From contig JBGPPG010000004.1 of assembly GCA_041488455.1 (NCBI GenBank), positions 143 through 64,142 on the forward strand: a stretch of DNA of 64,000 nt, read 5' to 3'. Numbering within the stretch: position 1 is the first letter of the stretch; every line of letters begins with the position of its first letter. This document shows, in pieces, positions 30,535-52,335 of this stretch. Under the pieces are notes generated by a model. It searched no databases. It was not told where the DNA came from and saw only the letters and a list, made by a program, of their open reading frames with translations. This DNA is from Gemmatimonadota bacterium (lineage in GTDB: Bacteria; Gemmatimonadota; Gemmatimonadetes; Gemmatimonadales; GWC2-71-9). The translations under genes were made by a program, and so were the position numbers.

Positions 30535-30936
30535 TCAGCCTGCGAGCCGGTGCGCGGCGAACGCCCGGACGATGTCGGTCTGGGAGATGACGCCTGCGAG
30601 CACGCCATCTGTCTCGACGAAGAGGCGGTGGACCTCTCCGTACAGCATGCGCTGCGCTGCCTCGCGCACGTCGGCATCTCCTGGAATCGTGAGCCCCGGG
30701 CGGGTCATCACGTCCTCCACCACCCGGTCTTCCCAGAGGCCGCCGCCTGCCATCAAGCTCTCGGCCTGGGCCTCGAGGATGTCCGTCGTCGACACAACGC
30801 CCAGGATCTTGCCGTGCCGGTCTACCACGGGAACGCCGCTGATGTGCGCGTCCGCCAACTCTTCCACCACATCGGCCAGGGTTTCGTCAGGGTGCACCGC
30901 CTGCACATCTCCGCGCATGAGGTCGGAGACTCTCAT
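30535..30936 (-). CDS. CBS-pair domain protein
   Basis: Two CBS repeats (GVPVVDRHGKILGVVSTTDIL and RLFVETDGVLAGVISQTDIV). Confidence 0.85.
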   Translation of the reverse strand: MRVSDLMRGDVQAVHPDETLADVVEELADAHISGVPVVDRHGKILGVVSTTDILEAQAESLMAGGGLWEDRVVEDVMTRPGLTIPGDADVREAAQRMLYGEVHRLFVETDGVLAGVISQTDIVRAFAAHRLAG

Positions 30937-33434
30937 GAGGCCACTCCTCCGGCTGCATGGGCGCGCCCGTCGGCCAGCCGATGGGTCACGGCCACCAGTG
31001 AATCGGGGTTCAGGGAAATCGAATCGATGCCGAGGCCGGCCAGGAATTCGGCGAAGTCGGGGTAGTCGCTCGGGGCCTGACCGCAGATCCCCACCTTGCG
31101 ACCTTTGCGGTGTGCCGCGCCGACCACCATCTCGATGAGCCGCTTGACACCGGGGTCGCGCTCGTCGAAGAGCGCGGACAGCAATTCCGAGTCGCGATCG
31201 ATGCCCAGCGTCAGCTGGGTCAGATCGTTCGACCCGATCGAGAATCCGTCAAACAGCTCGCCGAACTCCTCCGCGAGCACCACGTTGTTGGGAATCTCGC
31301 ACATCACATACACCTCGAGCCCGTTCCGCCCTCGTGCCAGGCCGTTGCGGTCCATCTCGGCGAGCACCTTTCCCGCTTCGCCCAGGGTCCGGCAGAAGGG
31401 GATCATGACCGTCGTGTTGGTCAACCCCATGTCGTCGCGCACCCGCCGGATCGCCGCGCACTCGAGCGCGAAGGCCTCGCGGTAACGCTCATGGTAGTAA
31501 CGGGAGGCGCCCCGGAAGCCGATCATGGGATTCGCCTCGGTGGGCTCGAACGCTGCCCCGCCCAGGAGCCCCGCGTACTCGTTGGTCTTGAAGTCCGAGA
31601 AGCGGACGATCACCGGGCGCGGGTAGAACGCGGCAGCGATCTGCCCAACGCCCGATGCCAGGCGTTCGATGAAGAACTCGGCGAGGGGCGAGACGCCGCC
31701 GGTTCGCTCTTCGATCTGTGCCCGGATCGATCGATCGGTCACCCGCTCCGGGTGCAGCAGGGCCATGGGATGGACACCGATCCACGAGGAGACGACGAAC
31801 TCGATGCGGGCGAGCCCGACTCCGGCGCTCGGCAGTCTGGCGAGGTGGAACGCGCGTTCGGGATTCCCCACGTTCAGCATCAGGGGGACCCTTGGTGTCG
31901 GAAGCGTCGCCGGGTCCAGCTCGGTGTGATCGAACTCCACGCGTCCCTCGTACACACGCCCCTCATCGCCTTCGGCGCAGGAGACGGTGACGACGGCGCC
32001 ATCCGCGAGCGTCTGCGTGGCCGTGCCGGTACCAACCACGCAGGGAATGCCGAGCTCGCGCGACACGATCGCCGCGTGGCAGGTCCGTCCGCCCTCGTCG
32101 GTGATCACGGCGGCCGCGCGCGCGAGCACGGGCTCCCAGTCGGGATCGGTCATCCGCGCCACCAGCACCTCGCCGGGGCGGAAGCTCGGCAGCGCTGCCG
32201 GCGACCCGACGACGTGCACCGGGCCTGCGGCGACCTGGGTGCCCACGCTCCGGCCCTTGAGCAGGACCCGGCCGGTGCCACGGCGCCGAAACAGAGACAG
32301 CCGGGGTGACTCCTGGGAGTGGACGGTTTCGGGGCGCGCCTGCACGACGAAGAGCTCCCCGCTGCGACCGTCCTTCGCCCATTCGAGGTCCATGGGCGTG
32401 GGCCGCCCGGCCCGGCGAGAATAATGCTCCTCGATCAGCACCGCCCAGCGGGCGAGCTGGAGCACTTCATCATCGCTCAGGACGAGACGCCGGCGGTCGG
32501 CAGCCGCGACACGGACCTCGGTCACGGCCTTCGAGCCGCCTTCGGCGTATACCAGCTTGACGCCTTTCGCGCCGATCTCGCGTCTGATGACGGCGCGGAA
32601 ACCGAGCGCGAGTGTGGGTTTGTGAATCCAGAACTCGTCGGGGCGGACACGGCCCTGGACCACCGTCTCTCCCAGGCCCCAGGCTCCGCTCACCAGCACC
32701 ACATCCCGAAAGCCACTCTCGGTATCAAGGGTGAAGATGACGCCCGCCGATCCCAGGTCGCTGCGAACCATCTTCTGGACCCCGACCGAAAGCGCCACCG
32801 CACGGTGGGCGAAGCCGTTGGCGGTGCGGTAAACGATTGCCCGATCGGTGAACAGGGAGGCAAAGCAGGCGCGCACGGCGGTATCGAGCGCCGCGACCCC
32901 ACGGACGTTCAGATAGGTCTCCTGCTGGCCGGCGAACGAGGCGGTTGGAAGGTCCTCTGCGGTCGCGCTGGACCGGACGGCCACGTCGGTTGCCGGGTCC
33001 CCGTAACGCTTCGAGAGAGCCTCGTAGGCGGCGGTGAGCTCGGCCGCGACCGCAGCCGGTAGGGGCGCTTCGGCGATCCGCTGTCGAATCGAACGCGCCG
33101 TGACGGCGAGTTGCGCCACGTCGCCTGGATCCAAGGCGTCCAACTCACGGTAGATCTCGTCGGCAAGCCGGTTCTGAGAGAGGTGCACGCGGAACGCGTC
33201 GGCCGTGACGGCGAACCCGTCGGGGACCTGAATGCCCTTGGGGACGAGGGCATGCACCATCTCTCCCAACGATGCGTTCTTGCCGCCGACCTGCGCCACC
33301 TGGTCGAGCGTGATGGCATTGAACGGGATGACATACTTCCCGGAGGATGGGAGTGCGGAATCGCGTCGCACGGACGGCGCAGCAGCCGGGGTCGCCAAGG
33401 TCATCACTCGCTTGAGGCCGGCTCCAATAGTCAC
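30933..33434 (-). CDS. ppsA: Phosphoenolpyruvate synthase (pyruvate, water dikinase)
   Basis: VGGKNASLGEM N-terminus, phosphohistidine motif GGRTCHAAIVSRELGIPCVVG and a PEP-utiliser TIM-barrel C-terminus. The true start may be ATG 33404. Confidence 0.92.
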   Translation of the reverse strand: MTIGAGLKRVMTLATPAAAPSVRRDSALPSSGKYVIPFNAITLDQVAQVGGKNASLGEMVHALVPKGIQVPDGFAVTADAFRVHLSQNRLADEIYRELDALDPGDVAQLAVTARSIRQRIAEAPLPAAVAAELTAAYEALSKRYGDPATDVAVRSSATAEDLPTASFAGQQETYLNVRGVAALDTAVRACFASLFTDRAIVYRTANGFAHRAVALSVGVQKMVRSDLGSAGVIFTLDTESGFRDVVLVSGAWGLGETVVQGRVRPDEFWIHKPTLALGFRAVIRREIGAKGVKLVYAEGGSKAVTEVRVAAADRRRLVLSDDEVLQLARWAVLIEEHYSRRAGRPTPMDLEWAKDGRSGELFVVQARPETVHSQESPRLSLFRRRGTGRVLLKGRSVGTQVAAGPVHVVGSPAALPSFRPGEVLVARMTDPDWEPVLARAAAVITDEGGRTCHAAIVSRELGIPCVVGTGTATQTLADGAVVTVSCAEGDEGRVYEGRVEFDHTELDPATLPTPRVPLMLNVGNPERAFHLARLPSAGVGLARIEFVVSSWIGVHPMALLHPERVTDRSIRAQIEERTGGVSPLAEFFIERLASGVGQIAAAFYPRPVIVRFSDFKTNEYAGLLGGAAFEPTEANPMIGFRGASRYYHERYREAFALECAAIRRVRDDMGLTNTTVMIPFCRTLGEAGKVLAEMDRNGLARGRNGLEVYVMCEIPNNVVLAEEFGELFDGFSIGSNDLTQLTLGIDRDSELLSALFDERDPGVKRLIEMVVGAAHRKGRKVGICGQAPSDYPDFAEFLAGLGIDSISLNPDSLVAVTHRLADGRAHAAGGVAS

Positions 33435-33613: not shown

Positions 33614-34057
33614 ATGAAGCTCACCAAAGCAGCGCCCACCGCTCTCGCCACCGTGCGCGACGATTTCGATCGGCTCTTCGACCGGATGTGGAACACGGGC
33701 GTGTTCGGAGCGCCACCTCGCGCATTCGAGACGATGTGGTCGCCATCGCTGGACTTCTCGGAGAACGAGAATGAGTACATCGTGCGGGTGGAAGCCCCGG
33801 GGATCCCCAAAGAGGATCTCGAGGTGAAGCTCGACGGGCAGAACCTCACGATTTCCGGGCGTCGGGAGTTCGAGAAGGAGGAGAAGACTGAGGAGTACTT
33901 TTGGCGGGAGCGCGAGGCCGGGAGATTCGTGCGCACCGTCCAACTGCCCGGCGCGGTTGAGCTGGCGAAGATCGCCGCAACCTATCAGGATGGAATCATG
34001 ACGGTCCGCCTGCCGAAGGCAGAGCCGGCCGAGAAGACCCGCATCCAGATCAAGTGA
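33614..34057 (+). CDS. Hsp20/alpha-crystallin small heat-shock protein
   Basis: Alpha-crystallin core (DFSENENEYIVRVEAPGIPKEDLEVKLDGQNLTISG...GIMTVRLPK). AAGGAGG RBS. Confidence 0.9.
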   Translation: MKLTKAAPTALATVRDDFDRLFDRMWNTGVFGAPPRAFETMWSPSLDFSENENEYIVRVEAPGIPKEDLEVKLDGQNLTISGRREFEKEEKTEEYFWREREAGRFVRTVQLPGAVELAKIAATYQDGIMTVRLPKAEPAEKTRIQIK

Positions 34058-36950: not shown

Positions 36951-37874
36951 TCAATCGCGACCGGCCTGGACGGGGACGACCAGTACCGGGTCCGTAGCGC
37001 CGCGAACCACCTTATCGACCACGCTGCCGAGCAGCAGCCGCTCGGCCCCGTGCCTGCCGGGCGTGCCCACCGCGATGGCTCCGCTGCCCAGTTTATGGGC
37101 GAGCGCAAGGATCTGAGCCCCAATACCCCGGGCGGCGACCACGTGCGTCGTCACCCCGACACCCAAGGTCCGCAGTCCCCCGGCAAGGCGCTCCAGGCTG
37201 GCCGTTGCTTCGGATTGCTGTTGCTCGATGAGCTCGGCGCCGATCGGGTTGGGATAGACGGTCAGATCATCGACGATCGGGACGGGCGGCTCGACAACTT
37301 GGACGAGCGAGCAGTGTGCTTCGTGGTATAGCGAGGCTAGGGCAGCGGCCACCTCGAGCACCTTCTGGTCAGCCGAAGACCCGTCGAGCGCCACCAGTAT
37401 GTGGCGAAAGTCCGTCCGTTGGGGCTGCTCCTTAGACCGGAGCAGCAAGACTGGCGTCGTTGTGCGCCGGAGCAGCCGGTCCGCCACGCTCCCGAGCCAG
37501 AAACGGCCAAGGCCGCTCCGGCCATGCGTGGTCATGACGATGAGCCCGATCTGTTTAGTGCGGGCGTAGTCAGCCAGCGCCTCGGCCGGTGGGCCGTCGA
37601 GCACGACGCCGGTGGCTTCCAGACCGTGGCAGGTGGCGACGGCCTCGGCCGTGATCGCGAGATAGGCGCGTACGCGCTGCTCCGCCTCACGCTCGATGCT
37701 CTTCGCGATCTCAGCGGGGACATGTGGATACCGGGGCGCCACCGGCTGCACAAAAGCGAGCTGGAGCGCTGCGCCGGCTCGCCGGGCCAGAGCGGCGGCC
37801 ACTGGAATGGCCTTCTCCGCAAGCGGTGATCCGTCGACCGGGACCAGCGTCGGGCTGAACCGCGAGGTCCCCAT
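36951..37874 (-). CDS. Tandem universal stress protein (USP)
   Basis: Two UspA halves (TTHGRSGLGRFWLGSVAD and GTPGRHGAERLLLGSVVD). Confidence 0.9.
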   Translation of the reverse strand: MGTSRFSPTLVPVDGSPLAEKAIPVAAALARRAGAALQLAFVQPVAPRYPHVPAEIAKSIEREAEQRVRAYLAITAEAVATCHGLEATGVVLDGPPAEALADYARTKQIGLIVMTTHGRSGLGRFWLGSVADRLLRRTTTPVLLLRSKEQPQRTDFRHILVALDGSSADQKVLEVAAALASLYHEAHCSLVQVVEPPVPIVDDLTVYPNPIGAELIEQQQSEATASLERLAGGLRTLGVGVTTHVVAARGIGAQILALAHKLGSGAIAVGTPGRHGAERLLLGSVVDKVVRGATDPVLVVPVQAGRD

Positions 37875-37881
37875 AGCTCTT

Positions 37882-38094
37882 CTACTTGTGGTCCTCGAGC
37901 AGGAAGGAGAGCTTCGCGTTCACGCGGAACTCGACGATCTTGTCTCCCTGGACGACGCCGTTGAAATTGTCGATCCAGATGCTCTTGATACCCCGTACGG
38001 TCTTCGCCGCTTCTTTCACGGCTTGCTGTGCCGCGTCGTCGAAGCTCTTCTCGGACTGGGCGATGACCTCGATCACCTTCACGAGCGTGCTCAT
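37882..38094 (-). CDS. Dodecin-family flavin-binding protein
   Basis: 70 aa. VKVIEVIAQSEKSFDDAAQQAVKEAAKTVRGIKS...FRVNAKLSF is typical of dodecin. Confidence 0.85.
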   Translation of the reverse strand: MSTLVKVIEVIAQSEKSFDDAAQQAVKEAAKTVRGIKSIWIDNFNGVVQGDKIVEFRVNAKLSFLLEDHK

Positions 38095-38117
38095 GGATGC
38101 CCTCCGAACCTATGGGG

Positions 38118-38660
38118 TCATGCTCGACCTCTGATCAGGGCCACGGTGCTGGCCTGGGGCCCCTTGTCGCCCGGCTCCGCAGCGTACCGCACCTCGGCGC
38201 CCAGCTCCAGGCGGTCAAACGCGGCATCCAAGACACTGTGCCTGTCGAAGTAGATCTCGCAGCCGTTCGGTGTGGTGAGAAATCCGTAGCCCTCCCAGGG
38301 CAACAGGCGAGTCACGACAGCGCGCGGGGCAGTGTGGGTGAGCTTGATATCCCCACGCTGCTTCCGGATCCGGTCTTGCAGGCGCCGGGCAGCTGCCCTG
38401 AAAGCCTCCTGCGCAGCGGTGAGCAGGGTCTCGTCGGCCTGCCGCTTGATCACGATCTCGCTGCCGGGGACGGCGACGTCGATGCGGACGTTGTACCGGT
38501 TTCCCGTCTGGCGTCTCCGGCTCTGGAGCTCGAGCAGCACCCGGCAGCTCGTAATCCGGCTCGCGAACGATTCGAGCTTCGCAGCCGCGTTCCGGATCAT
38601 CTGCTCGTCGGCCGGCGACAGCTCGAAGTTGCGGGTGGCGATCTGCAACGGCAGTTCCAT
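38118..38660 (-). CDS. HPF/RaiA ribosome-hibernation domain fused to a cold-shock (CSD) domain
   Basis: N-terminal S30AE-like region (LQIATRNFELSPADEQMIRNAAAKLESF...IDVAVPG...AFRAAARRLQDRIRKQ). C-terminal CSD (EGYGFLTTPNGCEIYFDRHSV...GDKGPQASTV). Confidence 0.8.
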   Translation of the reverse strand: MELPLQIATRNFELSPADEQMIRNAAAKLESFASRITSCRVLLELQSRRRQTGNRYNVRIDVAVPGSEIVIKRQADETLLTAAQEAFRAAARRLQDRIRKQRGDIKLTHTAPRAVVTRLLPWEGYGFLTTPNGCEIYFDRHSVLDAAFDRLELGAEVRYAAEPGDKGPQASTVALIRGRA

Positions 38661-38745: not shown

Positions 38746-39414
38746 TTACACGCCGATCTTGAGCTCGTCTTCCACGGCCGACACACCCGGCGCGGCCCAC
38801 GCGGCCCGCTCAGCTTCCTCCCGCTCCGCCCACGTCCGGACCCTACCGCGCAGCGTCACCCGTCCGTCGTGGGTCTCGACCTGCACGTTCCGAGCATCGA
38901 GCTCGGCGCTCCGCCGGAACGCCGCCTCGATGCGCGCTTTGACGTCGCCGGCCCAGACGCCAGGCTTGATGGTGATGAAGTTGTTCACGCCTTTCACGCC
39001 TGCCAGGTGGCTGGTTGCGCGTTCGGCTGCGGCGCGCTGAAATTGGAAAGTGACCTCTCCCTCCAGGGTCACGCGACCGTCCGAGATGCGGGCCTTGACC
39101 TTGTCGTGCGGCACCGCGACGTCCCATTCGAGGGCCTGCACCACAGCACGCGCGATGTCGGTGTCGGTCCGCTCGGCGCCGAAGGGCGGGTGAATCTCGA
39201 GTTCGCTGACCAGCGCCTTGACGCCAGTCACGCGTCTTGCCGCTCGCTCCGCGTTGAGCTTCTCGGCATAAGTGGGGACGGTGCCGGTCAGCGTCACGAC
39301 CCCATCGTTCGCGATGACCCCGATGTGGGCGGCATCCACGTTGGGCTCCCACTCGAGTTCGGCCAGCACTTGGCGCTTCAACTCCAGTTCCTTCTTCTCC
39401 AGTTCGCTCTTCAT
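38746..39414 (-). CDS. Triple BON-domain protein (OsmY-like)
   Basis: Three repeats of the G(V/R)VTL(T/E/R)G...ERAA...GV pattern. AGGAGGG RBS. Confidence 0.85.
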
Positions 39415-39555: not shown

Positions 39556-39809
39556 TCACTCCGTCCCTTCGCTTGCCCGGGTGCGGTCGGGCTCTTGCTC
39601 GGGCTCCAGGTCGTACTCGGTGATGAGGCCATGCCGATAGGCATACTCGCGGAGCTCAGTGGCGTCGAGCCGGCGAAGCAGATCACCCACCGACCGGAGC
39701 CCTGCCTCCTGCCCGTCGGTACTGAAGGTCCGATCCAGCTGCTCGAGCAACAGCCGCACCAGGTGCTCCTTGGCAACCACCGCGGATTCTGCGGGCTTCG
39801 TGGGTTTCA
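39556..39809 (-). CDS. Hypothetical 84-aa acidic protein
   Basis: ORF with a GAGGAG RBS 5 nt upstream. No family recognised. Confidence 0.5.
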
Positions 39810-40015
39810 TTGCGCTCCTCGGATGTTCAAGTCGAGTGGAGTGGCCCGCCACCTGCGGCGGCCGGCAACAACAAGGCGACCCGCCTCGCCGAGTGGTGCT
39901 CGGAGTGCGGGCCGCCCTACGCGCTGGCCACCGGGAGTCACAGAATCTCTTCTCTATTCTTCTCCTCTTGGCGCCTGTTGCACGGCACGCCGCGGCGCAA
40001 GCTAAGCGTTGCGAC

Positions 40016-40070: not shown

Positions 40071-41339
40071 TCACCGGAATCGGAGGAACGCAGCGAGCTG
40101 GTCCACGGCCGCTGCCGGGCCGGACTCGGGGAGCGTGACGACCTGGAGCCGCTGCCGCAGAGCGTCCTCCACCGCTTCGGCCACCGGATCCAGAACCGGC
40201 GTCGGCTCGCCTTCGCCTCGACACTCCGTCTTCGTCAGGACCAGCCGACCTGTGGCGGAGCAGCGGAACCCATCGATCGCGGCATCCTCTCGGACGAGCA
40301 AGGTCCGCACCTGCCCGCGCGCGAGCGCACGGAGCGTCTCGCGGGGTCCGTTGACGGCCCACTTGCGCCCCATCGCTTCGCCCAGCGCGACCACCAGCGC
40401 GGACGCCTGGGCCTGGTCGTGCTCCGCGGCGGCGGCGAACGCGGCGCCGTGCACCTGAGCCGGTGTAGCGGCAGTGGGGTTGAGCCTGGCGGCGCCGAGG
40501 ATGCACCGAGCGAGCCCGGGCGGCACGAACTGCGCAAGCGCCGCAGTTTCCTTGTGCGGCCCGGCCAGGAGAATGCCCCGGGCCGGGTAAGCCCGCATCA
40601 ACGCTTCCAGGTGCCGGGCGATCGCCTCGAGATGCCGATGTCGCTCCTCGCGGATCCGACCGTGGTAGAGGCGCTCCCCCCATCCCGGCGAATCGCGGCG
40701 GTCGGGGTAGAACTTGCCGCCCCGACGGCTCGTCTCCACCAATCCGGTCAGCTCCGTCGCACCGAACGCGGTCGCGCTGAAGAACCGGGCATGGCTTCGA
40801 TCGAAGACCGCGGCAAGCAGGGTGCCGAAGTCTTGCTCGGCCGAAATCAGCTCGCGAAGCCAGGGCGTGTCGTCCACCACCACGCGAGTGCGATGTACCC
40901 GGGGCAGGGGAATCACCTCGAACAGGCTGAGCCCCTCGCTGGCGAAGATGGCCAGGCCGCGCGCGGCCGGCAGGGTACGGGCGTCGGCCAGGTAGTCGGC
41001 GATGCGCCTGAAGTCGCCCGCGGCTGCCTGCTCCCAGGCGGCCGCGCTGCGCTGTTTGACCTCGGTCAGGTATCTCTGGCGCCTGCGGTCCTCGGGTGCG
41101 AGCCGGAGGTAGCAGCTGACCACACGATGTGGCCCGGGCTCGATCGCCACAAGCCGATCGAGCACGGAGGCGGCGGTGCGGCCGGCTTTCGGCGCGGTCC
41201 GAGTCGGAGAAGGCGCCTCAGCACGGGGAGTAGTGGTGACCACGTAGCTCTCCTGCATGTCGGAGCTTCCAAGCTGGCGAGCCGCGATGAAGAGCGGCTG
41301 AAGCGGCACCCAAGAGACCTTCATGATCCTCTCAGGCAC
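40071..41339 (-). CDS. eRF1/Pelota-like (bacterial eRF1-paralog) protein
   Basis: Central region LLAAVFDRSHARFF...SRRGGKFYPDRR...RIREERHRHLEAIARHL aligns by eye with the eRF1 M-domain around GGQ. C-terminal AVNGPRETLRALARGQVRTLLV resembles eRF1/Pelota domain 3. The start is uncertain. Confidence 0.6.
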   Translation of the reverse strand: MPERIMKVSWVPLQPLFIAARQLGSSDMQESYVVTTTPRAEAPSPTRTAPKAGRTAASVLDRLVAIEPGPHRVVSCYLRLAPEDRRRQRYLTEVKQRSAAAWEQAAAGDFRRIADYLADARTLPAARGLAIFASEGLSLFEVIPLPRVHRTRVVVDDTPWLRELISAEQDFGTLLAAVFDRSHARFFSATAFGATELTGLVETSRRGGKFYPDRRDSPGWGERLYHGRIREERHRHLEAIARHLEALMRAYPARGILLAGPHKETAALAQFVPPGLARCILGAARLNPTAATPAQVHGAAFAAAAEHDQAQASALVVALGEAMGRKWAVNGPRETLRALARGQVRTLLVREDAAIDGFRCSATGRLVLTKTECRGEGEPTPVLDPVAEAVEDALRQRLQVVTLPESGPAAAVDQLAAFLRFR

Positions 41340-41452: not shown

Positions 41453-41890
41453 CTACATAGGCACGCGGGGGTTTTGCTTCTCGACCAGGTGACCGATGGA
41501 GTGCGCATCCAGGCTGAGCAGATCCAGAACGTCGTCCAGACTGAGAATCCCGACCATCGGGTGGTCCTTGCCCGTCACGATCAGCCGCCGGGTCCCGGCG
41601 ACCGCCATCTTCGAAACCGCATCTTCGATCGCTGCGTCCTCACCCACCGTCTGCACCGGCGTGCTCATCACTTTCGTGACGGGCATTATATCTGGGTCGC
41701 CGTCCCTCGCGACGCAGCGGATCACGATGTCCCGATCCGTGAGGATACCGATCGCGTGGCTCCCTGCATCAGGCTCGACGACGACGACGGTTCCGACATC
41801 ATGCTCCGCCATGCGCCGCGCCGCCGCTCTCACGCTCTCCGAGGGCAACGCCGTCACGACGGCCCGACTGCACAAGCCTCCTGCCGTCAT
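41453..41890 (-). CDS. CBS-pair domain protein
   Basis: Two CBS repeats (GTVVVVEPDAGSHAIGILTDRDIV and RLIVTGKDHPMVGILSLDDVL). The ATG overlaps the upstream stop (ATGA). Confidence 0.85.
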   Translation of the reverse strand: MTAGGLCSRAVVTALPSESVRAAARRMAEHDVGTVVVVEPDAGSHAIGILTDRDIVIRCVARDGDPDIMPVTKVMSTPVQTVGEDAAIEDAVSKMAVAGTRRLIVTGKDHPMVGILSLDDVLDLLSLDAHSIGHLVEKQNPRVPM

Positions 41891-42618
41891 TGCTGCCTCC
41901 CCGCGGATTCGCCGACTGCCACCCGCAGATAGCGCTCGAACCAAGCGCGCGCCAGCTCCGCGACCCGATCGAGCGTACCGGGCTCCTCGAAGAGGTGCCC
42001 AGCGCCCGGGACGATCACGAGTTGCTTCGCGCCCACCTGGAGGTGGGCGAGCGCGGTTCGATTCATCTCGATGACCGGCGTATCGTATCCCCCGACGATG
42101 AGGAGCGTCGGCGCCTTCACCCGGGGGAGGTACGGCCCCGCGAGGTCGGGGCGGCCGCCGCGGGAGACGACCGCGTGAACCGACTGCGGCCGGAGCGCGG
42201 CGGCGACCAGTGCCGCTCCCCCCCCGGTGCTGGCTCCGAAATAGCCTACCGGCAGCCGGCGCAGCTCCGGCCGGGACGCTACCCAGTCAGTGGCCTGAGC
42301 CAGCCGCTCCGCCAACAGGGCGATGTCGAAACGCAGCTCGGCCGTGACCGCGTCGCGCCGCTCTTCCTCCAGAGTGAGAAGGTCGAACAGCAGCGTCGCG
42401 AAGCCCCCCTCCTGGAGCTGCCCGGCGACCCGACGATTCCTCGGACTCTGCCGGCTGCTTCCACTCCCGTGCGCAAAGACGACCATGCCACGCGGCACGG
42501 CCGGCACGACGAGATCGCCGTCAAGCGCTACGCTGCCCGCGCGGATCCGCACCGACCAGGCTTGGGGATAAGGGGTTTGCGACAACCTAGTCTCCTGCTG
42601 TCTGCCCCGGGCGCTCAC
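41887..42618 (-). CDS. Dienelactone-hydrolase-like alpha/beta hydrolase
   Basis: VVFAHGSGSSRQSPRN, nucleophile elbow GASTGGGAAL and a C-terminal GAGHLFEEPG. Confidence 0.8.
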   Translation of the reverse strand: MSARGRQQETRLSQTPYPQAWSVRIRAGSVALDGDLVVPAVPRGMVVFAHGSGSSRQSPRNRRVAGQLQEGGFATLLFDLLTLEEERRDAVTAELRFDIALLAERLAQATDWVASRPELRRLPVGYFGASTGGGAALVAAALRPQSVHAVVSRGGRPDLAGPYLPRVKAPTLLIVGGYDTPVIEMNRTALAHLQVGAKQLVIVPGAGHLFEEPGTLDRVAELARAWFERYLRVAVGESAGRQQ

Positions 42619-43970
42619 AGCGCCGACGGGTAGGTCTCGAGCAATTCGGGTTCGCCGCGCTCCCAGAGGGGCGTGCGCTCCAGCGGCTCCACCGCGCGCG
42701 TATGGTCATAGTGGAACACGGCATCGAACTGGTGCGGGAGCCGGGCGCCGAAATAGTGGCTCGGACGCTCGGTCTCCGGACGGTAGATCACGCCGATTGC
42801 ACGCTCTAGCCGCGGCTGCTCGAGGGCGGCAATGGCATCGCCGGGAGAGCGTAGATCGAGGAAGAAGTTGCCCAGTCCGCACTCGTGAAACAACGCTTCG
42901 TAACTCTCGGGCAGCGCCGGCCGAACCATCTTTCGCTCGGCGTCGGCGTTCCAATCGGATGCGGCCGTCACCGTGCCGGTGTAGGTCGTGAACCCGACCA
43001 GGATGGCCGCGCGCCCATAGCGCTCGCGGATCAGCTGCCCGACGTTGAGCTCGCCGCGCCGGGAGCCCATTTCCGTCGCCCGGGCGTCGCCCAGGTGTGA
43101 GTTGTGGGCCCAGACCACGATCTTTGCGCGTCGCGGGTCCGCCTCGAGGAAGGCACTCAGGGCGCCAAGCGTCTCGGCCATGTGCTGATCGCGGAGGTTC
43201 CAGGAGGCCGCATGATCCTCGAACATGGCCCGGTAGTACCGCTCGGCGTTCGCGACGACTTTGGCGTTCTGCTCTGCGAAGAAGAGATCGTCGGGAGCCA
43301 GGCGGCCGTCCCGCTTGGCGTACTCGGCGGCTGCGGCCCGGAGCTCGACCAGCTGGCTGATGACCGCAGTCTCGCATGAGGGGGCGAGCCTGAGCTTGGT
43401 GGTGTAGCCGTACACTTGCGGGTCGCCGCCGAAGCTCTCGAAGCAGGCGTACCGGTGCGCTGCCCTCACCGCCGCCTCGGGGTCCACCACCTTCAGATAG
43501 TCGACCACCGCGTGCATGGAGGCGTGCAGGCTGTACAGGTCGAGGCCGTAGAAGCCGGCCTTGGCAGGGTCGGCGTCCCGGTCGTCGTTGTGCTCGCGCA
43601 GCCATCCGACGAAGTCGAGGACGTCGGCGTTGCGCCACATCCACTGGGGGAACCGCGCGAAGCCGCTCAGGGCGTCCGCAGCGTCGGCGTCCTTCGAGCG
43701 GCCGCGCACGTAGCGGTTCACCCGGTAGGCGTCGGGCCAGTCGGCCTCGACCGCGACGGCGCTGAAGCCCCTCTCGCGGATGAGCCGTTTGGTGATCTCG
43801 GCGCGCACCCGATAGAAGTCATGGGTGCCGTGCGACGCCTCGCCCAGCAGCACGAGCCGCGCATCGCCCACGGCGGCGAGCAGTGGGTCGAAGTCGGCGG
43901 GCGTGCCGTGCAGCCGATGGGCCGCGTCCCGAACCGCGGCGACGACCAGACGGTCAGCGCCGGGCGGCAT
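42615..43970 (-). CDS. Erythromycin-esterase-family protein
   Basis: LLGEASHGTHDFYRVRAEITKRLIRERGFSAVAVEADWPDAYRVNRYV signature. Confidence 0.85.
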   Translation of the reverse strand: MPPGADRLVVAAVRDAAHRLHGTPADFDPLLAAVGDARLVLLGEASHGTHDFYRVRAEITKRLIRERGFSAVAVEADWPDAYRVNRYVRGRSKDADAADALSGFARFPQWMWRNADVLDFVGWLREHNDDRDADPAKAGFYGLDLYSLHASMHAVVDYLKVVDPEAAVRAAHRYACFESFGGDPQVYGYTTKLRLAPSCETAVISQLVELRAAAAEYAKRDGRLAPDDLFFAEQNAKVVANAERYYRAMFEDHAASWNLRDQHMAETLGALSAFLEADPRRAKIVVWAHNSHLGDARATEMGSRRGELNVGQLIRERYGRAAILVGFTTYTGTVTAASDWNADAERKMVRPALPESYEALFHECGLGNFFLDLRSPGDAIAALEQPRLERAIGVIYRPETERPSHYFGARLPHQFDAVFHYDHTRAVEPLERTPLWERGEPELLETYPSAL

Positions 43971-44664
43971 GGCGCTTTTCCCTGTTCGCCAGCACCTCTG
44001 CGCCTTCAGCCGGCGCGGGCACGGCCGTGGCGTGCCGGAGCAGCGTGCGGACCTCCTCGTCGGTCGTCTGGGAGAAGTCGTGGTACCACATGCCCACGGC
44101 CTGAAACGCCTCCGGGATGGCCACGGCTTCGCACCGATCGGCCGCCCGCGACAGCATGTGCCAGGCGCTCTCCGACATCACCGGTGCGGCGGCGATGATC
44201 GCGCCGGGCCCATGCTGCCGCAGCGCGTGGATGGCTGCCAGCATGGTGGCGCCGGTTGCCACCCCATCGTCGATCAAGATCACCGTCTTCCCCCGCAGAT
44301 CGGGGAAGGGGCGGCCGACGCGATAGTCACGCTCGCGGCGCTCCAGCTCGATCTGCTCGGACGCTGCGACCGAGTCGGCCACCTCGCGGGGAATGTTGAG
44401 GCGCCGAAGCACGTCCTGGCTCTGGACGCGAATGCCGCCGCTGGCGATCGCTCCCATGGCGAACTCCGGATGGCCCGGCACGCCAAGCTTACGCACGACG
44501 AAAACGTCCAGCGGGGCGCCGAGCGCCGTCGCCACCTCGGCGGCGACCGGTACTCCTCCACGGGGAAGGCCGAGCACGACCAGATCGGTCCGTCCAGTGA
44601 AGGTGGACAGTCGGCTGGCGAGCTGGCGTCCGGCGTCGTGGCGATCGGAAAAGGGAAGCGTCAT
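43954..44664 (-). CDS. Phosphoribosyltransferase-domain protein
   Basis: FSDRHDAGRQLASRL, LGLPRGGVPVAAEVA and PRPP loop VILIDDGVATGATM. Confidence 0.85.
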   Translation of the reverse strand: MTLPFSDRHDAGRQLASRLSTFTGRTDLVVLGLPRGGVPVAAEVATALGAPLDVFVVRKLGVPGHPEFAMGAIASGGIRVQSQDVLRRLNIPREVADSVAASEQIELERRERDYRVGRPFPDLRGKTVILIDDGVATGATMLAAIHALRQHGPGAIIAAAPVMSESAWHMLSRAADRCEAVAIPEAFQAVGMWYHDFSQTTDEEVRTLLRHATAVPAPAEGAEVLANREKRHAARR

Positions 44665-45208: not shown

Positions 45209-47857
45209 ATGCCGAGGAGATTGTACAGGAGCTTCGTCAGTCCTTCGCGGGCGATGGCAGGCCGCGCCAGCTCGACAGAGCGGCCTGACGCCGCGCCTGA
45301 CGGACTGCGAGAGTTCTGGCGCACCCCGCTGCCCGAGCTCTTCGCGCTGCTCGGCTCGCGCCCGAGCGGGTTGACCGCGGAAGAGGCCGCAGCCCAACTC
45401 ACCCGGTACGGTCCCAACACGCTCCATGTCGCGCGGAAGCATACGTTCATGCGTCTGTTCGTGTCGCGCTTCCGCAGTCCGCTGGTCATCCTGCTCCTCG
45501 TCGCCAGCACGATCTCCGCGCTGACGGGCGACGTTGTCAGCTCGACGATTGTCATCTGCATGGCGCTGCTCAGCGTGGTCCTCGACGCGGTGCAGGAGTA
45601 CCGGGCCGGAGAAGCGGCCGAGCGGCTCAAGCAGTCGGTCGCCGTGCAAGTCGATGTCCTGCGAGGCGGAGCTGCCACCACCGTGCCGGCCGCCGGCGTC
45701 GTCCCCGGCGATGTGGTGCTGCTCTCGGCCGGCGACTTGGTGCCGGCCGACGGCCGGGCGCTCGAGACGTACGACTGCTTCGCCAATCAAGCGCTGCTCA
45801 CCGGCGAGCCGTATCCGGTCGAGAAGCACGCCGACACAGCAGCCCCGTCCGTACCTCTGAATGAAGCGGCGAACGTCCTGTTCATGGGCACCTCCGTCGT
45901 GAGCGGGTCCGCCCGAGTCCTCGTCTGCCGAAGCGGGAGCGAAACGGCGCTCGGCGAGATCAGCAAGAGCCTGAGCGTGGAGCCACCACCGACCGCGTTC
46001 GAACAAGGCGCCCGGAGCTTCGGACTCCTGGTGCTGCGGCTCGCCGTGCTAATGACGTTGTTCGTCATCTTCGTCAATACGGCGCAGCACCGTCCCTGGC
46101 TGGAGTCGTTCCTGTTCGCCGTGGCCCTCGCGGTCGGGCTCACCCCGGAGCTGCTCCCCATGATCGTGTCGGTGACGCTCTCCCGCGGAGCGCTGCGAAT
46201 GGCGGCCAAGAAGGTCATCGTGAAGCGCCTGGCCGCGATCCACGACCTCGGGAGCATGAACGTGCTTTGCACCGATAAGACCGGGACCCTGACCGAGTCC
46301 CGGATCCGTCTTGAGCAGCACCTCGATCCCCTGGGTCGCAGCACCACCCGGGCGCTGGAGCTGGCCTATCTCAACAGCTATTTCGAGACCGGGCTGAAGA
46401 GTCCCCTCGACGAGGCCATTCTCCGGCACGGAGAGATCGAGCCGCGGGGCTGGACCAAGATCGACGAGGTCCCCTTCGACTTCCAGCGGCGCCGCGTCTC
46501 CGTCCTGCTTGCGCGGCAGGATGGCACGCGAATACTGGTCATCAAGGGAGCCTTCGAGGACATTCTGCGCTGTGCCGCCAGCTACGAGGGCGCCGGCCCC
46601 GACGATCTCCGACCGCTCGACCCCGGAGCCCGCGACGCGATGATACGTCGCTTTGAGGCGTTGAGCCGGGAGGGCTATCGGGTGCTCGGCATCGCATGGA
46701 AGGCGATGCCGCCCGCTTGGGCTCAGGCAGCGGTCGGCGATGAAGCGGGGCTCGTCTTCGCCGGGTTCGCGGCCTTCGAGGACCCACCCAAGCCGAGCGC
46801 GGCCGCGGCGTTAAAGGCGCTGGCCGAGAGCGGCGTGGAGGTGAAGGTCGTCACCGGCGACACCGAGCTCGTGACGCGCCATGTCTGCGCGGAGGTCGGA
46901 CTTGCCGTGAAGGCCGTCATGACCGGTCCGGAGCTCGACGCTCTCCAGGATGAGGCGCTCGAGGCGCGCGCCGGCGACGTGACGTTGTTCTGCCGCGTTA
47001 CCCCAGCCCAGAAGAGTCGCGTGATCCGGGCGCTGCGCCGGCGCGGCCATGTCGTCGGCTTTCTCGGAGATGGCATCAATGACGCGCCCTCCCTCCACGC
47101 GGCCGACGTTGCCATCTCGGTCGACACCGGCGTGGACGTCGCAAAGGCCGCCGCGGATCTGATCCTGCTCGAGCACGACCTGTCCGTGGTCCACGACGGC
47201 GTCGCCGAAGGCCGGCGCACCTTCGGGAACATCATGAAGTACATCATGATGGCCATGAGCTCGAATTTCGGGAACATGTTCAGCATGGCCGGGGCCTCCC
47301 TCTTCCTGCCGTTCCTGCCGATGCGCCCGGTCCAGGTGCTTCTGAACAACTTCCTCTACGATGTCTCGGAGATTCCTATCCCAATGGACAGCGTGGACGA
47401 GGAGTTCATGCGCCGCCCCCGGCACTGGGACATGGCGTTCGTCCGCAAGTTCATGCTGGTCATCGGACCGGTCAGCTCGATCTTCGACTTCCTGACGTTC
47501 TACATCATGCTGCACGTGTTTCGGGCGGGCGAGCAGCTCTTCCAGACCGGGTGGTTCGTCGAATCGCTGGCTACCCAGGTCTTGGTGATCTTCGTCATTC
47601 GCACCCGGGGCAATCCGCTCCGGAGCCGGCCGAGCCGACTGCTCACGCTGACGTCGCTCGGCGTGGTGGCCGTCGGCGCCCTGCTTCCGATTACGTCGCT
47701 CGGTCGCACGCTCGGCTTTGTGCCGCCCCCGGCGGCTTTCTTCCTCATCCTGGCCGCGATGGTGGCCATGTACCTCGGTGCCGTCCAGGCGGTGAAAATC
47801 TGGTTCTACCGGCGCTTTGCGCCGGAAGTGGTCGGAAAAGGGGCATACCGCATTTGA
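45209..47857 (+). CDS. mgtA: Magnesium-translocating P-type ATPase
   Basis: [32 protein letters not shown] and an MgtA-type C-terminal membrane region (WFVESLATQVLVIFVIRT). Confidence 0.88.
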   Translation: MPRRLYRSFVSPSRAMAGRASSTERPDAAPDGLREFWRTPLPELFALLGSRPSGLTAEEAAAQLTRYGPNTLHVARKHTFMRLFVSRFRSPLVILLLVASTISALTGDVVSSTIVICMALLSVVLDAVQEYRAGEAAERLKQSVAVQVDVLRGGAATTVPAAGVVPGDVVLLSAGDLVPADGRALETYDCFANQALLTGEPYPVEKHADTAAPSVPLNEAANVLFMGTSVVSGSARVLVCRSGSETALGEISKSLSVEPPPTAFEQGARSFGLLVLRLAVLMTLFVIFVNTAQHRPWLESFLFAVALAVGLTPELLPMIVSVTLSRGALRMAAKKVIVKRLAAIHDLGSMNVLCTDKTGTLTESRIRLEQHLDPLGRSTTRALELAYLNSYFETGLKSPLDEAILRHGEIEPRGWTKIDEVPFDFQRRRVSVLLARQDGTRILVIKGAFEDILRCAASYEGAGPDDLRPLDPGARDAMIRRFEALSREGYRVLGIAWKAMPPAWAQAAVGDEAGLVFAGFAAFEDPPKPSAAAALKALAESGVEVKVVTGDTELVTRHVCAEVGLAVKAVMTGPELDALQDEALEARAGDVTLFCRVTPAQKSRVIRALRRRGHVVGFLGDGINDAPSLHAADVAISVDTGVDVAKAAADLILLEHDLSVVHDGVAEGRRTFGNIMKYIMMAMSSNFGNMFSMAGASLFLPFLPMRPVQVLLNNFLYDVSEIPIPMDSVDEEFMRRPRHWDMAFVRKFMLVIGPVSSIFDFLTFYIMLHVFRAGEQLFQTGWFVESLATQVLVIFVIRTRGNPLRSRPSRLLTLTSLGVVAVGALLPITSLGRTLGFVPPPAAFFLILAAMVAMYLGAVQAVKIWFYRRFAPEVVGKGAYRI

Positions 47858-47891
47858 TGGTAGCCACCATGAAGCCAGTCCGAATCCTTCC

Positions 47892-50579
47892 GTGAGCGCC
47901 CCCTGGCACGCGGTGCCGCTGAGCGAGGCGCTGGATCGCCTCGGCTCGAGGCCGGGCGGACTGGACGAGACCGAGGCCGCCGACCGGCTCGCCCGGCACG
48001 GCCCCAACCTGTTCCGCGCAGCCCCGCCAGTGTCGCCCTGGATGGTGCTCGCCGCGCAGCTGCGGAGCATGATCGTGCTCCTGCTCGCGGCGGCTGCGGT
48101 GGTTGCGCTGCTTTCCGGTGACGCGCTCGATGCCGGGGCTATCGGGGCGGTGCTGGTCCTCAACGTCGCCATCGGATTCGTCACCGAGCTGCGCGCGCAT
48201 CGGGCCATGGAATCGCTGCTCGCGCTGGAGGTGACCCGTGCGCACGTGGTGCGCCAGGGAACGACGCGCGCGATCGACGCCCCCGGCCTGGTTCCCGGCG
48301 ACGTCATCGAGCTCGAGGCCGGCCAGATGGTACCGGCGGACGCTCGGCTCCTCGAGGCTGCCGAGCTCCGCGCGGTGGAGGCCTCGCTCACCGGCGAGCC
48401 GGTCCCGGTCGACAAGACCGCCGATGTCCGCCTGGCCGCGGAGGTCCCTCTCCCCGACCGTATCACGATGGTTTACAAGGCGACGATGATTGCGGGTGGG
48501 CGCGGGCGCGCGGTGGTAGTGGCGACCGGGATGGACACCGAGGTCGGACGCATCGGTCTCCTGGCCCGCGCCATCGCACCCGAGCCGACGCCCCTCGAGC
48601 GCCGGCTCGGCGAGCTCGGTCGCGGTCTCGCGGGCGTGGCGCTGGTCGTCGCGGCGCTGGTGGCGGGCCTGGAGGCCCTGCATGGCGTCCCACTCGCCGG
48701 GATTGTGCAGACCGCGCTCGCGCTCGCGGTGGCGGCGGTGCCGGAGGGACTCCCCGTGGTCGGGACCATTGCGATGGCGGTCGGCATGCGTCGGATGGCC
48801 CGTCGCCGGGCGCTCGTGCGGCGACTGTCGGCTGTGGAGGCGCTGGGCTCCGCCACCGTGATTTGCACCGACAAGACCGGCACGCTCACAGCCGGCGAGA
48901 TGACGGTGACCGTCATACGGCTCCTCGAACGGGAGGTTTCGCTGAGTGGTGCGGGGTACGCGCCCGAGGGCGAGTTCCTCGAGAACGGGCGACCAGTCGA
49001 GTCCCTACAGGACGCGGCCCTGCAACTCGCCCTGCAGATCGGCGCACTGGCAAACCGAAGCGACGTCGTCCTGCGGGAAGGGGCATGGCGAGTCAGGGGC
49101 GATCCCACCGAGGCGGCGTTGGTCGTCGCGGCGCGGAAAGCGGGACTGGAGCCCGCCCGCCTGCGCGAGGGGTGGCCCGAAGCAGGGGAGGTTCCCTTCT
49201 CCAGTGGGCGCATGCTGATGGCCACGTTTCACCGGACGCCGACCCTGACGGCCTGCGTGAAAGGCGCGCCCAGACGAGTTCTGGAGCTGAGCGACCGGGT
49301 CCTCGCGGCGGAGGGGCCGAGAGCGCTCGTTGAAGGAGAGAGAGAGGAGCTCCTTCGGCTCAACGGCGAGCTCGCTGGGCGGGGGCTCCGCGTTCTCGCG
49401 CTCGCCATGAAGCGCGTGGACGCCGTCAGTGAAGCGGAGCTCTGCGGCCTCACGTGGGTCGGCTTCGTCGGGATCAGCGACCCGCCGGCGCCGGGGGTCC
49501 TGGATACGATCCGCGCCTTCCGGGAGGCCGGGATCCGCACCGTCATGCTGACCGGGGACCAGAAGCTCACGGCCGAGAGCGTCGGACGTGAGCTGGGCCT
49601 GCTGGGCCCCCGCGACGGAGCGCTCGATGGCCGTGAGCTCGACCGGCTCTCGGATGACCAGCTCCACGAGGCGGTGGCTCTGACGGCCGCGTTCAGTCGC
49701 GTGAGCCCCGAGGCCAAGCTCCGGATCGTCAGCGCCTATCAGCAGCGGGGTGAGATCGTCGCGATGCTGGGCGACGGCGTGAACGATGCCGCAGCGCTCC
49801 GCAAGGCCGACATCGGCGTCGTGATGGGACTGCGTGGAACGGACCTGGCGAGGGAAGCGGCGCAACTCGTCTTACAGGACGACCGCTTCGCTACCATCGC
49901 GGTGGCGATCGAAGAGGGGCGGGTGATCTTCGACAACATCCGCAAGTTCGTGTTCTACCTCTTCAGCTGTAATCTCGCCGAGATCATGGTGTTGCTTGGA
50001 GCAGGGCTGGTCGGGGCTCCCGTGCCGCTGCTTCCGGTCCAGATCCTCTGGCTCAACCTCCTCACCGACACCTTTCCCGCCCTCGCCCTCGCGGTCGAGC
50101 CACCAGAGCCGGGGACCATGCGCCAGCCACCCCGTGATCCCCGGGCGGCCATCCTCTCGATGCCGATGCTGTGGGCGACGGTCGGATACGCCCTGCTCAT
50201 CGCCGGGGTATCGGTGGCGGCGTTCGCGTGGGGGCTCTCGGGCGGCAATGGACGGGCGAGAACTCTCACCTTCATGACTCTGGCCCTCGCGCAAGTCTTC
50301 CACCTCGGCAATGCGCGAAGCGACCTTCCGGTGACGGCGCCGGGCCGCGTTCTGAGCAACCGCTTCGCGGTGGGCGCGGTCGTGTTGACGGTCGGGCTCC
50401 AGCTTCTCGCGGTCTTCCTGCCGCCGCTGGCACGCGTGCTCCGCATCGAGCCGCTCGGGGCCCGGGACTGGGCGGTGGTCACGGCTCTCAGCTTGCTCCC
50501 CGCAGTCGCGGGGCAGAGCTTGAAATGGGCGCGGGCACGGGGATTGTGGGGCCGGTCTCCCTCCGAGCCCGGTTTCTAA
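47892..50579 (+). CDS. Cation-transporting P-type ATPase, type IIA (Ca2+-ATPase-like)
   Basis: [51 protein letters not shown] 47892 was chosen to avoid overlap with mgtA. Confidence 0.88.
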
Positions 50580-52242: not shown

Positions 52243-52286
52243 CCATGGTCCTCCGTGAGGGACACCACACCCTATTCCCTCGGCTG

Positions 52287-52313
52287 TGAAGCGAGGATGA
52301 AGCCCGGGCGAAG
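52287..52313 (-). promoter_or_regulatory. Phased CTTCA array (3 units) oriented toward the USP at 52242
   Basis: The plus strand reads TGAAG (52287), TGAAG (52298) and CGAAG (52309). The proximal unit lies 45 nt before the ATG. Confidence 0.5.
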
Positions 52314-52335
52314 CCGGCGTCATCCCGGGAACGAC

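Follow-up and report, generated by a model that had tools for sequence, protein, structure and literature searches.

What does a protein resembling the release factor eRF1 do in a bacterium, where RF1 and RF2 are used for canonical termination? This question is raised by one gene on a 64,000-nucleotide stretch of a Gemmatimonadota genome (order Gemmatimonadales; assembly GCA_041488455.1, contig JBGPPG010000004.1, positions 143 to 64,142), referred to as the window. The gene, which we call baeRF, locates on the minus strand at 40071-41324, between a string of genes that includes a ribosome hibernation factor and a block of phosphoribosyltransferase (PRTase) and esterase genes. We find that baeRF is a divergent baeRF-1 (family 10) member of the Balon-type ribosome hibernation factor family in a Gemmatimonadales host. 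It is likely to act as a non-catalytic, Balon-like hibernation factor, a ligand of the ribosomal A site made under stress together with HPF-CSD, a fusion of HPF with a cold-shock domain (CSD).

The family has been described before. The baeRF-1 clade and the Pfam families within it were delimited in 2019 by Burroughs and Aravind, who noted an operonic link with HPF; they predicted that most baeRF-1 families are non-catalytic A-site binders and proposed a Dom34-like rescue role (PMC6514570). In 2024, Balon, Msmeg1130 and Rv2629 were characterised by cryo-electron microscopy, knock-out and in vitro translation (Helena-Bueno et al., Nature; PMC10901736). Msmeg1130 and Rv2629 bind the A site, carry no NIKS or GGQ, have an insertion in the C domain, and cut the in vitro synthesis of green fluorescent protein about 15-fold, and a knock-out of P. 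arcticus Balon recovers more slowly from stationary phase (PMC10901736). Balon preserves the nascent chain, and the characterised homologues stabilise 70S ribosomes without splitting them (PMC10901736). An earlier sequence-only reading of this locus had held that bacterial eRF1 paralogs lack experimental function, a view that the 2024 work has made outdated. The most frequent gene context of Balon/baeRF-1 is adjacency to RaiA/HPF (PMC6514570, PMC10901736); RtcB is a recurrent neighbour of Balon, and several Balon copies may occur per genome (PMC10901736). As far as the supplements of the Balon paper go, Gemmatimonadota is not listed there; the set of that paper comprises 1,898 sequences (PMC10901736).

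Family, fold and domains of baeRF

The open reading frame (ORF) of baeRF is real. Counted from the first in-frame GTG at 41339, it spans 422 codons at 40071-41339 on the minus strand, as the sequence-only reading had it, and the three peptide strings quoted there, SRRGGKFYPDRR, RIREERHRHLEAIARHL and NGPRETLRALARGQVRTLLV, are all present in the translation. The likeliest start, however, is the ATG at 41324, which is preceded by GAGAGGA and gives 417 aa plus a stop codon. Gene callers choose the same ATG, as do the two closest homologues (79% and 73% identity, among the matches listed), which have the start MKVSW...LQP in common with baeRF, and an identical 417-aa protein is found in a public protein collection (P0001). 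The GC content at third codon positions (GC3) is 0.83, as in other real genes of the window, which has ~69% GC overall. Residues are numbered here by the 417-aa protein; adding 5 gives the 422-aa numbering of the earlier reading. All parts of baeRF are given in minus-strand coordinates.

The top Pfam match of baeRF is PF18854 (baeRF_family10), with 55.7 bits over model positions 1-142 of 143. This is above the gathering threshold of 27.1 bits and the best score of the clan, in which family 2 (33.0 bits) and family 3 (31.8 bits) follow. Core family-10 proteins score 88-158 bits on the same model, and the clade of baeRF scores ~50-56 bits. Fragments of Msmeg1130 and Rv2629 were rebuilt from profile-alignment output and then scanned against Pfam: Msmeg1130 is a strong member of family 10 (125 bits), the family in which baeRF is also found, and Rv2629 belongs to family 2 (145 bits). 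In NCBIfam, baeRF shows sub-threshold matches to all three ‘ribosome hibernation factor’ equivalogs (AOC03_06830, which is Balon, Rv2629 and MSMEG_1130).

Two other assignments were tried and rejected. VLRF1/Vms1, the NCBI name of a 53%-identical homologue (P0079), gives no acVLRF1 Pfam match at E<=10, and the Gln motif is missing. Like Vms1/VLRF1, baeRF has a middle domain of the aeRF1 superfamily, but it is without the GGxSQ/GxuQ motif and has full N and C domains, one or both of which are absent from VLRF1 families (PMC6514570). The name ‘host attachment protein’ (PF10116) is matched at E=0.005, below the cut-off.

A single-sequence phmmer search against the PDB found one marginal match, the C domain of eRF1 (E=0.086). 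A profile built from an alignment of 116 homologues (A1) was needed for clear matches. Nearly over its full length, this profile matches Msmeg1130 (8v9j, E=1e-7), A. pernix aRF1 (3agk, E=1.6e-7), Rv2629 (8v9k, E=1.5e-5), several eRF1s and Pelota, and query positions 17-397 are covered. The AlphaFold2 (AF2) model on A1, with a mean predicted local distance difference test score (pLDDT) of 87.2 and a predicted template modelling score (pTM) of 0.81, displays a disordered N tail of ~50 residues and three folded domains. Foldseek against the PDB places Msmeg1130 on the 70S ribosome at rank 1 (E=1.8e-18, TM 0.55/0.61, 392 columns), followed by aRF1, eRF1, P. urativorans Balon and Rv2629. All three Balon proteins are within the top 10, and Pelota/Dom34 ranks lower.

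The AF2 model, Foldseek and the profiles agree on the three-domain aeRF1 architecture, with an N domain, an RNase-H-fold middle domain and a Pelota/L7Ae-like C domain. The best structural matches, the Balon proteins (Msmeg1130, 8v9j/8v9l; Rv2629, 8v9k; P. urativorans, 8rd8/8rdv/8rdw), have the same architecture. baeRF agrees with aRF1 and eRF1 in how its three domains fold, in having an Arg-rich helix behind the loop and in the domain-3 motif; it differs from them in the absence of NIKS, YxCxxxF and GGQ, in a loop twice as long and in its bacterial lineage. Pelota/Dom34, a non-catalytic aeRF1-fold A-site ligand, is a significant fold match as well, although weaker than Balon or aRF1. The eRF1-like fold on which the sequence-only reading was built, with an M-domain-like core, a helix after the loop and a domain-3-like C-terminus, is therefore confirmed by profile matches to eRF1, aRF1, Pelota and Balon and by the structural comparison.

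The N-terminal extension of ~50 residues (41175-41324) is predicted to be disordered and is confined to the closest relatives: its pLDDT is <50 at residues 1-26 and stays low until about residue 50, and most homologues in the alignment begin about 25-55 residues further in. The N domain (residues about 51-151; 40872-41174), delimited by the AF2 model, the aRF1 alignment and conservation, contains a conserved basic loop, PLPRVHRTR (residues 139-147), followed by DDTPW. Residues V143, H144, R145, R147, D151, D152 and P154 are nearly or fully invariant in the 116 sequences. No NIKS is found in this domain. In the aRF1 alignment, TDNIKLK stands opposite a gapped, non-conserved sequence, where the window protein has SAAAWEQAAAGD.

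The C domain (residues about 320-417; 40074-40367) is of the eRF1 domain-3 or Pelota-like type. Its C-terminal string aligns with eRF1 domain 3 (VFGVDDTLKALEMGAVETLMV; phmmer), and the aRF1 and Rv2629 profile alignments extend through the C-terminal LRF(R). A stretch of this domain at ~326-342, aligned with eRF1 domain 3, and the DDTPW region at ~139-156 are the most conserved segments of the protein. A beta-hairpin insertion (40209-40277) holds strands 352-355 and about 360-361 in the AF2 model, and C355 and C368 are invariant. At the same site, relatives from Aminicenantes (L067 and L070-L079, alignment A2; about 25% identical) carry an intact CPxC...CPxC zinc ribbon, of which the window protein keeps two Cys. 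Located where Balon has its beta-loop insertion, the hairpin is a zinc ribbon in degenerate form, and it agrees with the two-strand insert that replaces the zinc ribbon in the Pelota-like domain of baeRF-1 family 10, whose clade is also associated with HPF (PF18854, PMC6514570).

An aeRF1 scaffold without NIKS and GGQ, together with an insertion in the C-terminal domain, which is the EF-Tu-binding domain in Balon, is the set of traits known from Balon proteins. The ‘HP motif’ of Balon, an extended loop of the N domain in contact with the decoding centre, and the ‘bL27 trap’ of its middle domain were not located in baeRF, as their residue numbers are not given in the paper (PMC10901736). On the other hand, baeRF differs from the Balon proteins in its loop signature and its disordered N extension, and it is known here from sequence and model.

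The loop in the place of GGQ

The middle domain (residues about 152-287; 40464-40871) is an RNase-H-fold domain resembling eRF1 domain 2; PF18854 spans residues 159-304 of the 422-aa ORF, and the profile matches are to the middle domains of eRF1, aRF1 and Balon. Between strand 188-195 and helix 216-245, a 20-residue loop (residues 196-215, VETSRRGGKFYPDRRDSPGW; 40680-40739), defined by the AF2 model and column conservation, replaces the GGQ loop of eRF1. It is modelled with lower AF2 confidence. An extended loop at this place is also a feature of the Balon proteins, and the loop of Rv2629 is of similar length and has the G-W dipeptide in common with that of baeRF.

Two motifs stand out in this region. 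RGGKF (residues 201-205; 40710-40724) is conserved as RGG[K/R][F/Y]: among 120 homologues, R201 is kept in 118, G202 and G203 in 119, and K or R at position 204 in 100. The RGG[K/R] motif is under selection and has not arisen by chance. PGWGE (residues 213-217; 40674-40688), recognised in HMMER alignments to 3agk and 4crm and in MAFFT alignments, has P213, G214, G216 and E217 invariant in the 116 sequences. The signature of the clade reads RGG[K/R]F-x2-DR-x-D-x-PGxGE-x2-YH, with a 7-residue insertion and an invariant Glu, and 11 of the 20 loop positions are conserved at >=90%. The idea that the loop is the most conserved segment of the protein was dropped, with a mean majority fraction of 0.71 versus 0.70 overall and higher values in the C-domain and DDTPW regions.

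The sequence-only reading had placed GGK at the GGQ site. What holds of this claim is that the motif lies in the same strand-to-helix loop and that Gln is absent; the register is probably wrong. In direct HMMER alignments, GGQ falls within P213-R218 (PGWGER), where P-G-W stands opposite aRF1 and G-E-R opposite yeast eRF1. We further aligned baeRF with a set of bridging core family-10 proteins, Msmeg1130, Rv2629, human eRF1 and haloarchaeal aRF1 in three modes of MAFFT, and all three modes pair eRF1 G183-G184-Q185 with P213-G214-W215. In this register, L-P-K-K-H-G-R-G-G-Q-S-A of eRF1, V-P-G-R-H-D-Q-G-G-W-S-Q of family 10 and Y-P-D-R-R-D-S-P-G-W-G-E of the window protein are superimposed, and the invariant E217 aligns with the Gln of the core family-10 GGW[S/A]Q. 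In both HMMER and MAFFT alignments, RGG stands opposite gaps in eRF1, aRF1, Msmeg1130, Rv2629 and core family 10. The MAFFT register makes SRRGGKF an insertion particular to the clade, ~11 residues upstream of P213-G214-W215 within the loop, and it is longer in some relatives, where KF is kept and GG is not.

The Aminicenantes relatives have a short loop of eRF1 length with GGF, and a profile-profile alignment (hhalign) against them dissents, pairing RGGkF with KxGGf. The use of this GGF as a bridge for equating RGGK with GGQ was dropped once core family-10 proteins, Msmeg1130, Rv2629, eRF1 and aRF1 were added. On the alignments taken together, the counterpart of GGQ is probably P213-G214-W215, and RGGKF is probably an insertion.

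Under either register, the catalytic Gln of release factors is missing. No Gln is found at either candidate position in baeRF, which carries P213-G214-W215 or, in the alternative register, R-G-G-K in place of GGQ, or in its 116 close homologues. The well-conserved glutamine of family 10 is also absent, and Glu (PGWGE) takes its place in the window protein and in all close homologues. Core family-10 loops read VPG[K/R]HDQGGW[S/A]Q or GGWxG[Y/L]EE, and some strong members are likewise without Gln, namely the GGWxGYEE group with 104-115 bits. Unlike core family 10, the clade of baeRF has Pro-Gly-Trp-Gly-Glu, an added RGG[K/R]F insertion and no conserved Gln. Meanwhile, we notice that Msmeg1130 (8v9j chain z, ...QERAGQMREQ...) has A-G-Q in the G-G-Q columns of eRF1, though it is described as having no GGQ motif.

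The loop is followed by a long basic helix (residues 216-245, GERLYHGRIREERHRHLEAIARHL...; 40590-40679), the equivalent of the post-GGQ helix of eRF1. It aligns with eRF1 RLRMEKRHNYVRKVAE and RFARLRMEKRHNYVRKVAE in the profile alignments and in MAFFT, and R223 and R230 are invariant in the 116 sequences.

Neighbouring genes and the two clades of homologues

Downstream of baeRF, a string of genes lies on the same minus strand. Directly next to it is an ORF of 84 aa (39556-39810), which has GAGGAG before its ATG and matches nothing in Pfam or NCBIfam. In the contig of the 79%-identical homologue (L080), the closest among the matches listed, this ORF is 76% identical at the same position (9630-9878). 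ORFs of 46-51% identity lie directly downstream in L006, L007, L009 and L010, and a match in L002 is ~3.6 kb away. The small ORF may be an uncharacterised operon partner of baeRF.

The string continues with a triple-BON protein of the OsmY-like type (38746-39414; three Pfam BON domains, a sub-threshold OsmY-like NCBIfam match), 86% identical and syntenic in L080. The fusion of HPF/RaiA (S30AE) with a C-terminal CSD (38118-38660) scores 41.5 bits on PF02482 and 25 bits on CSD, just under the 27-bit Pfam cut-off; in L080 it is 83% identical and syntenic, and both domains are called there. It is followed by a dodecin (37882-38094), with a sub-threshold NCBIfam dodecin match of 42 bits and a Pfam Dodecin match in the 87%-identical L080 orthologue. 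At the dodecin site, the GC3-based gene list flags an overlapping plus-strand ORF (37886-38134). The last member is a tandem universal stress protein (USP; 36951-37874; two Pfam Usp domains), 78% identical and syntenic in L080.

L080 keeps the order of baeRF, small ORF, BON, HPF-CSD, dodecin, USP, GGDEF, CBS, PPS and CBS with 58-90% identity. Between BON and HPF-CSD, L080 has two additional genes, for an RtcB RNA ligase and an archease (10687-13143); the window encodes no RtcB, no archease and no second baeRF paralogue. In 79 loci from species-representative genomes, HPF, BON, USP or Hsp20 occur near many homologues of the clade of baeRF. The window itself holds the context typical of Balon, an HPF/RaiA-type neighbour within a stress operon, with HPF-CSD, BON, USP, Hsp20 and CBS.

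Upstream, also on the minus strand, are genes for a PRTase (43954-44664), an erythromycin-esterase family protein (Ere; 42615-43970), a protein of the dienelactone-hydrolase type (DLH; 41887-42618) and, immediately next to baeRF, a CBS-pair protein (41453-41890; two Pfam CBS domains), all identified by Pfam. They overlap end to end, by 17 nt, by 4 nt and by an ATGA in which the CBS start overlaps the DLH stop. This arrangement points to a single unit with coupled translation, which a gap of about 130 nt separates from the start of baeRF. The sequence-only reading had set baeRF between this operon and the HPF string. The named genes are present on the same strand, but the PRTase-Ere-DLH-CBS unit is not a conserved operon partner: homologues of PRTase, Ere or DLH are near baeRF in 12 of the 79 loci, at variable distance and strand, and the upstream genes in L080 are unrelated, with no PRTase, Ere or DLH. 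A functional operon link of baeRF to PRTase-Ere-DLH, missing next to the closest homologue, was therefore rejected. Since the HPF string is kept in L080 and is commoner near homologues than PRTase/Ere/DLH, it is the conserved partner of baeRF, and the PRTase block is found with them in the same island. A loose link through shared membership in a dormancy island explains the PRTase block better. The linkage to HPF and stress genes, conserved in L080 and in many loci of the clade, is the part of the neighbourhood that lasts.

Further out in the window are genes for GGDEF, a cyclopropane-fatty-acid-synthase-like methyltransferase, Hsp20 (33614-34057), a phosphoenolpyruvate (PEP) synthase-type enzyme (30933-33434), a second CBS protein (30535-30936), YceI, two P-type ATPases (45209-50579) and more USPs, so that USPs lie at 26728-27690, 36951-37874 and 51265-52341. 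The segment 26728-52341 of the window (~25 kb) reads like a dormancy island whose content parallels the DosR regulon of M. tuberculosis. In that species, the HspX operon, which is induced by hypoxia, encodes Rv2030c, a protein that combines PRTase and Ere, and Rv2629 is a member of the mycobacterial DosR dormancy regulon (PMC4410610). No regulatory motif shared by the intergenic regions of the island was seen by eye, a comparison made without a formal motif search. The parallels in gene content beyond Rv2629 and Rv2030c are presumed. Outside the island, the GC content falls to 0.593 at 54001-56000, versus about 0.69 elsewhere; this dip may represent foreign or non-coding DNA.

Of the 383 homologues of baeRF that a database search found at E<=1e-5, 120 were listed. 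Their identity to baeRF is 48-100%, and every organism-named one comes from Gemmatimonadales metagenome bins; their annotations are inconsistent (‘eRF1’, ‘host attachment protein’, ‘VLRF1 family release factor’, ‘hypothetical’). Searched exhaustively with a profile, 1.84 billion cluster representatives yield 4,444 relatives at E<=1e-3, so that baeRF belongs to a large superfamily.

A neighbour-joining tree with the gene context mapped on it separates the Gemmatimonadales proteins into two clades. One is the stress-island clade, which includes the window baeRF. The other (34 loci, a subset of L011-L063) resides in a methylmalonyl-CoA mutase operon with the one-strand order MeaB, MM_CoA_mutase, baeRF, HAD, B12-binding subunit and carboxyltransferase (for example, L020 3068-5943 and L024 424-3275, each a same-strand string). 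Such a setting is unexpected for a ribosome factor. The metagenome-assembled genome SMAG_U559 contains both types, the mutase-operon type at L022 and the stress-island type at L008, in line with the 2024 report that a genome may hold several copies of Balon (PMC10901736).

The function of baeRF and its rival explanations

We consider hibernation the probable function of baeRF because of its family, the first rank of Balon in the structural comparison, the loss of NIKS and GGQ, and the synteny with HPF and stress genes. From these we infer ribosome binding, dependence on EF-Tu, lack of catalysis and induction by stress. A mechanism can be proposed by homology to Msmeg1130, Rv2629 and Balon. Under starvation, hypoxia or in stationary phase, baeRF would be made together with HPF-CSD, BON, dodecin and USP. 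It would enter the ribosomal A site as a mimic of tRNA or eRF1, probably with EF-Tu on its C domain. The N domain, which has no NIKS, would contact the decoding centre without reading the mRNA. The middle domain would set the basic helix and the Gly/Arg-rich loop (RGGKF...DR...PGWGE) beside the peptidyl-transferase centre without hydrolysing peptidyl-tRNA. At the same time, the HPF-type partner would fill the tRNA and mRNA sites of the small subunit. Translation would thereby be blocked, and the ribosome protected till conditions improve. The sequence-only reading had suggested a role in ribosome rescue or hibernation during dormancy. The closeness of the Balon structures and the HPF/BON/USP synteny favour its dormancy and hibernation part, and rescue by peptide release is less likely.

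Several observations weigh against hibernation as the function. The NCBIfam equivalog scores are 42.5, 33.4 and 18.3 bits versus cut-offs of 330, 320 and 480 (AOC03_06830, Rv2629 and MSMEG_1130, respectively), and the identity to the characterised Balon proteins is just 14-19% in the Foldseek alignments. By these comparisons, baeRF is a distant paralogue or a separate subfamily, and an orthologue of no characterised Balon. Family 10 has been flagged as possibly catalytically active, with its Gln retained (PMC6514570). The conservation of the loop and the invariant Glu at the family-10 Gln position exceed the ‘poorly conserved loop’ of inactive baeRF-1 families, and the second clade of homologues sits in a methylmalonyl-CoA mutase operon rather than in a stress setting. 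In addition, a scan for sigma-70 promoters and intrinsic terminators at 36.8-45.3 kb found nothing above shuffled expectation, so the operon boundaries follow from spacing and synteny only.

If the loop were catalytic, baeRF would be an active release or rescue factor, in which Glu217 or the backbone of the PGWGE turn replaces the Gln of GGQ on stalled ribosomes. The conserved loop would then reach into the peptidyl-transferase centre and set off the hydrolysis of peptidyl-tRNA. There are precedents in the proposal made for Gln-bearing family-10 baeRF-1 proteins and in the activity shown for Vms1/VLRF1. Family 10 is also the baeRF-1 family flagged as possibly active, and a loop of fixed length that is well conserved in the clade is a pattern deemed typical of active families (PMC6514570). 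The Gln of the core family-10 VPG[K/R]HDQGGW[S/A]Q is aligned with the invariant E217, and the presence of RtcB and archease among the syntenic genes of the closest relative suggests repair of damaged translation components. Side-chain mutants of the GGQ Gln in RF1 and eRF1 are often partly active, and thus the loss of Gln alone is no proof of inactivity. However, neither candidate position has a Gln in the 116 close homologues, and Pro replaces the first Gly of GG. With A-G-Q at the aligned columns, Msmeg1130 belongs firmly to family 10 and inhibits translation, and Balon keeps the nascent chain intact. Without NIKS, no stop codon would be read, and the HPF/USP/BON context is unlike that of a rescue system. 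We regard an active release factor as decidedly unlikely. The same RtcB and archease, with RtcB a recurrent neighbour of Balon, would also suit a non-catalytic Pelota/Dom34-like factor that splits or repairs stalled or damaged ribosomes, coupled to ligation of the RtcB type and not to storage. Pelota structures are significant fold matches, and Dom34-like non-catalytic rescue was proposed for baeRF-1 in 2019 (PMC6514570). Yet Pelota is far below Balon, aRF1 and eRF1 in both the sequence and the structure searches, the window has neither RtcB nor archease, and no partner of the ABCE1 or Hbs1 type is encoded near baeRF in the gene annotation of the window. The characterised bacterial homologues stabilise the 70S ribosome rather than split it (PMC10901736). 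We regard a splitting or repair factor as unlikely.

A role away from the ribosome is highly improbable. In that case, baeRF would have lost its ribosomal function and could serve, for instance, as a regulator, or as a module that binds RNA or protein, in connection with PRTase/Ere/DLH or, in the sister clade, with methylmalonyl-CoA mutase. Such a role would fit the sister clade, whose gene lies, in 34 loci, between those for MM_CoA_mutase and the B12-binding subunit. It would also fit the PRTase-Ere-DLH triad, which recurs in the vicinity of homologues; one of these (L073, 26% identical) comes from a Pseudonocardiales metagenome-assembled genome. Against it, baeRF keeps all three aeRF1 domains, including the Arg residues of the basic helix that bind large-subunit rRNA; its most conserved segments (326-342 and 139-156) fit the surface of a ligand of the whole ribosome, and the PRTase/Ere/DLH linkage is lost in the closest relative. 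A further reading, which we hold to be very unlikely, takes the Gemmatimonadales clade as a functionally distinct Balon/family-10 offshoot. Its conserved loop of fixed length, with RGG[K/R]F, PGxGE and the invariant Glu in place of the family-10 Gln, would enter the peptidyl-transferase centre. The chemistry of this loop could then be peptidyl-tRNA hydrolysis with a Glu-positioned water, or the loop could be a switchable plug, for example via loop modification. Such an offshoot would be a hibernation factor that also clears nascent chains, and the mutase-operon paralogue would hint at metabolite-coupled control of translation.

Returning to baeRF as a Balon-type hibernation factor, we note that the family, the fold, the HPF linkage and the function are already published, and baeRF opens no new question. 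Unusual points are limited to three: the loop of the clade, in which Glu occupies the position of the family-10 Gln, the conserved 84-aa ORF, and the paralogue of the mutase operon. The Balon assignment, if right, would be useful for the annotation of the inconsistently named homologues. If baeRF is such a factor, Balon-type hibernation would extend to Gemmatimonadota, which are abundant in soil and difficult to grow in culture. The mycobacterial dormancy gene set, with Balon, HPF, USP, Hsp20, CBS, PRTase-Ere and P-type ATPases, and with RtcB in a relative, would then recur as one island in an unrelated phylum.

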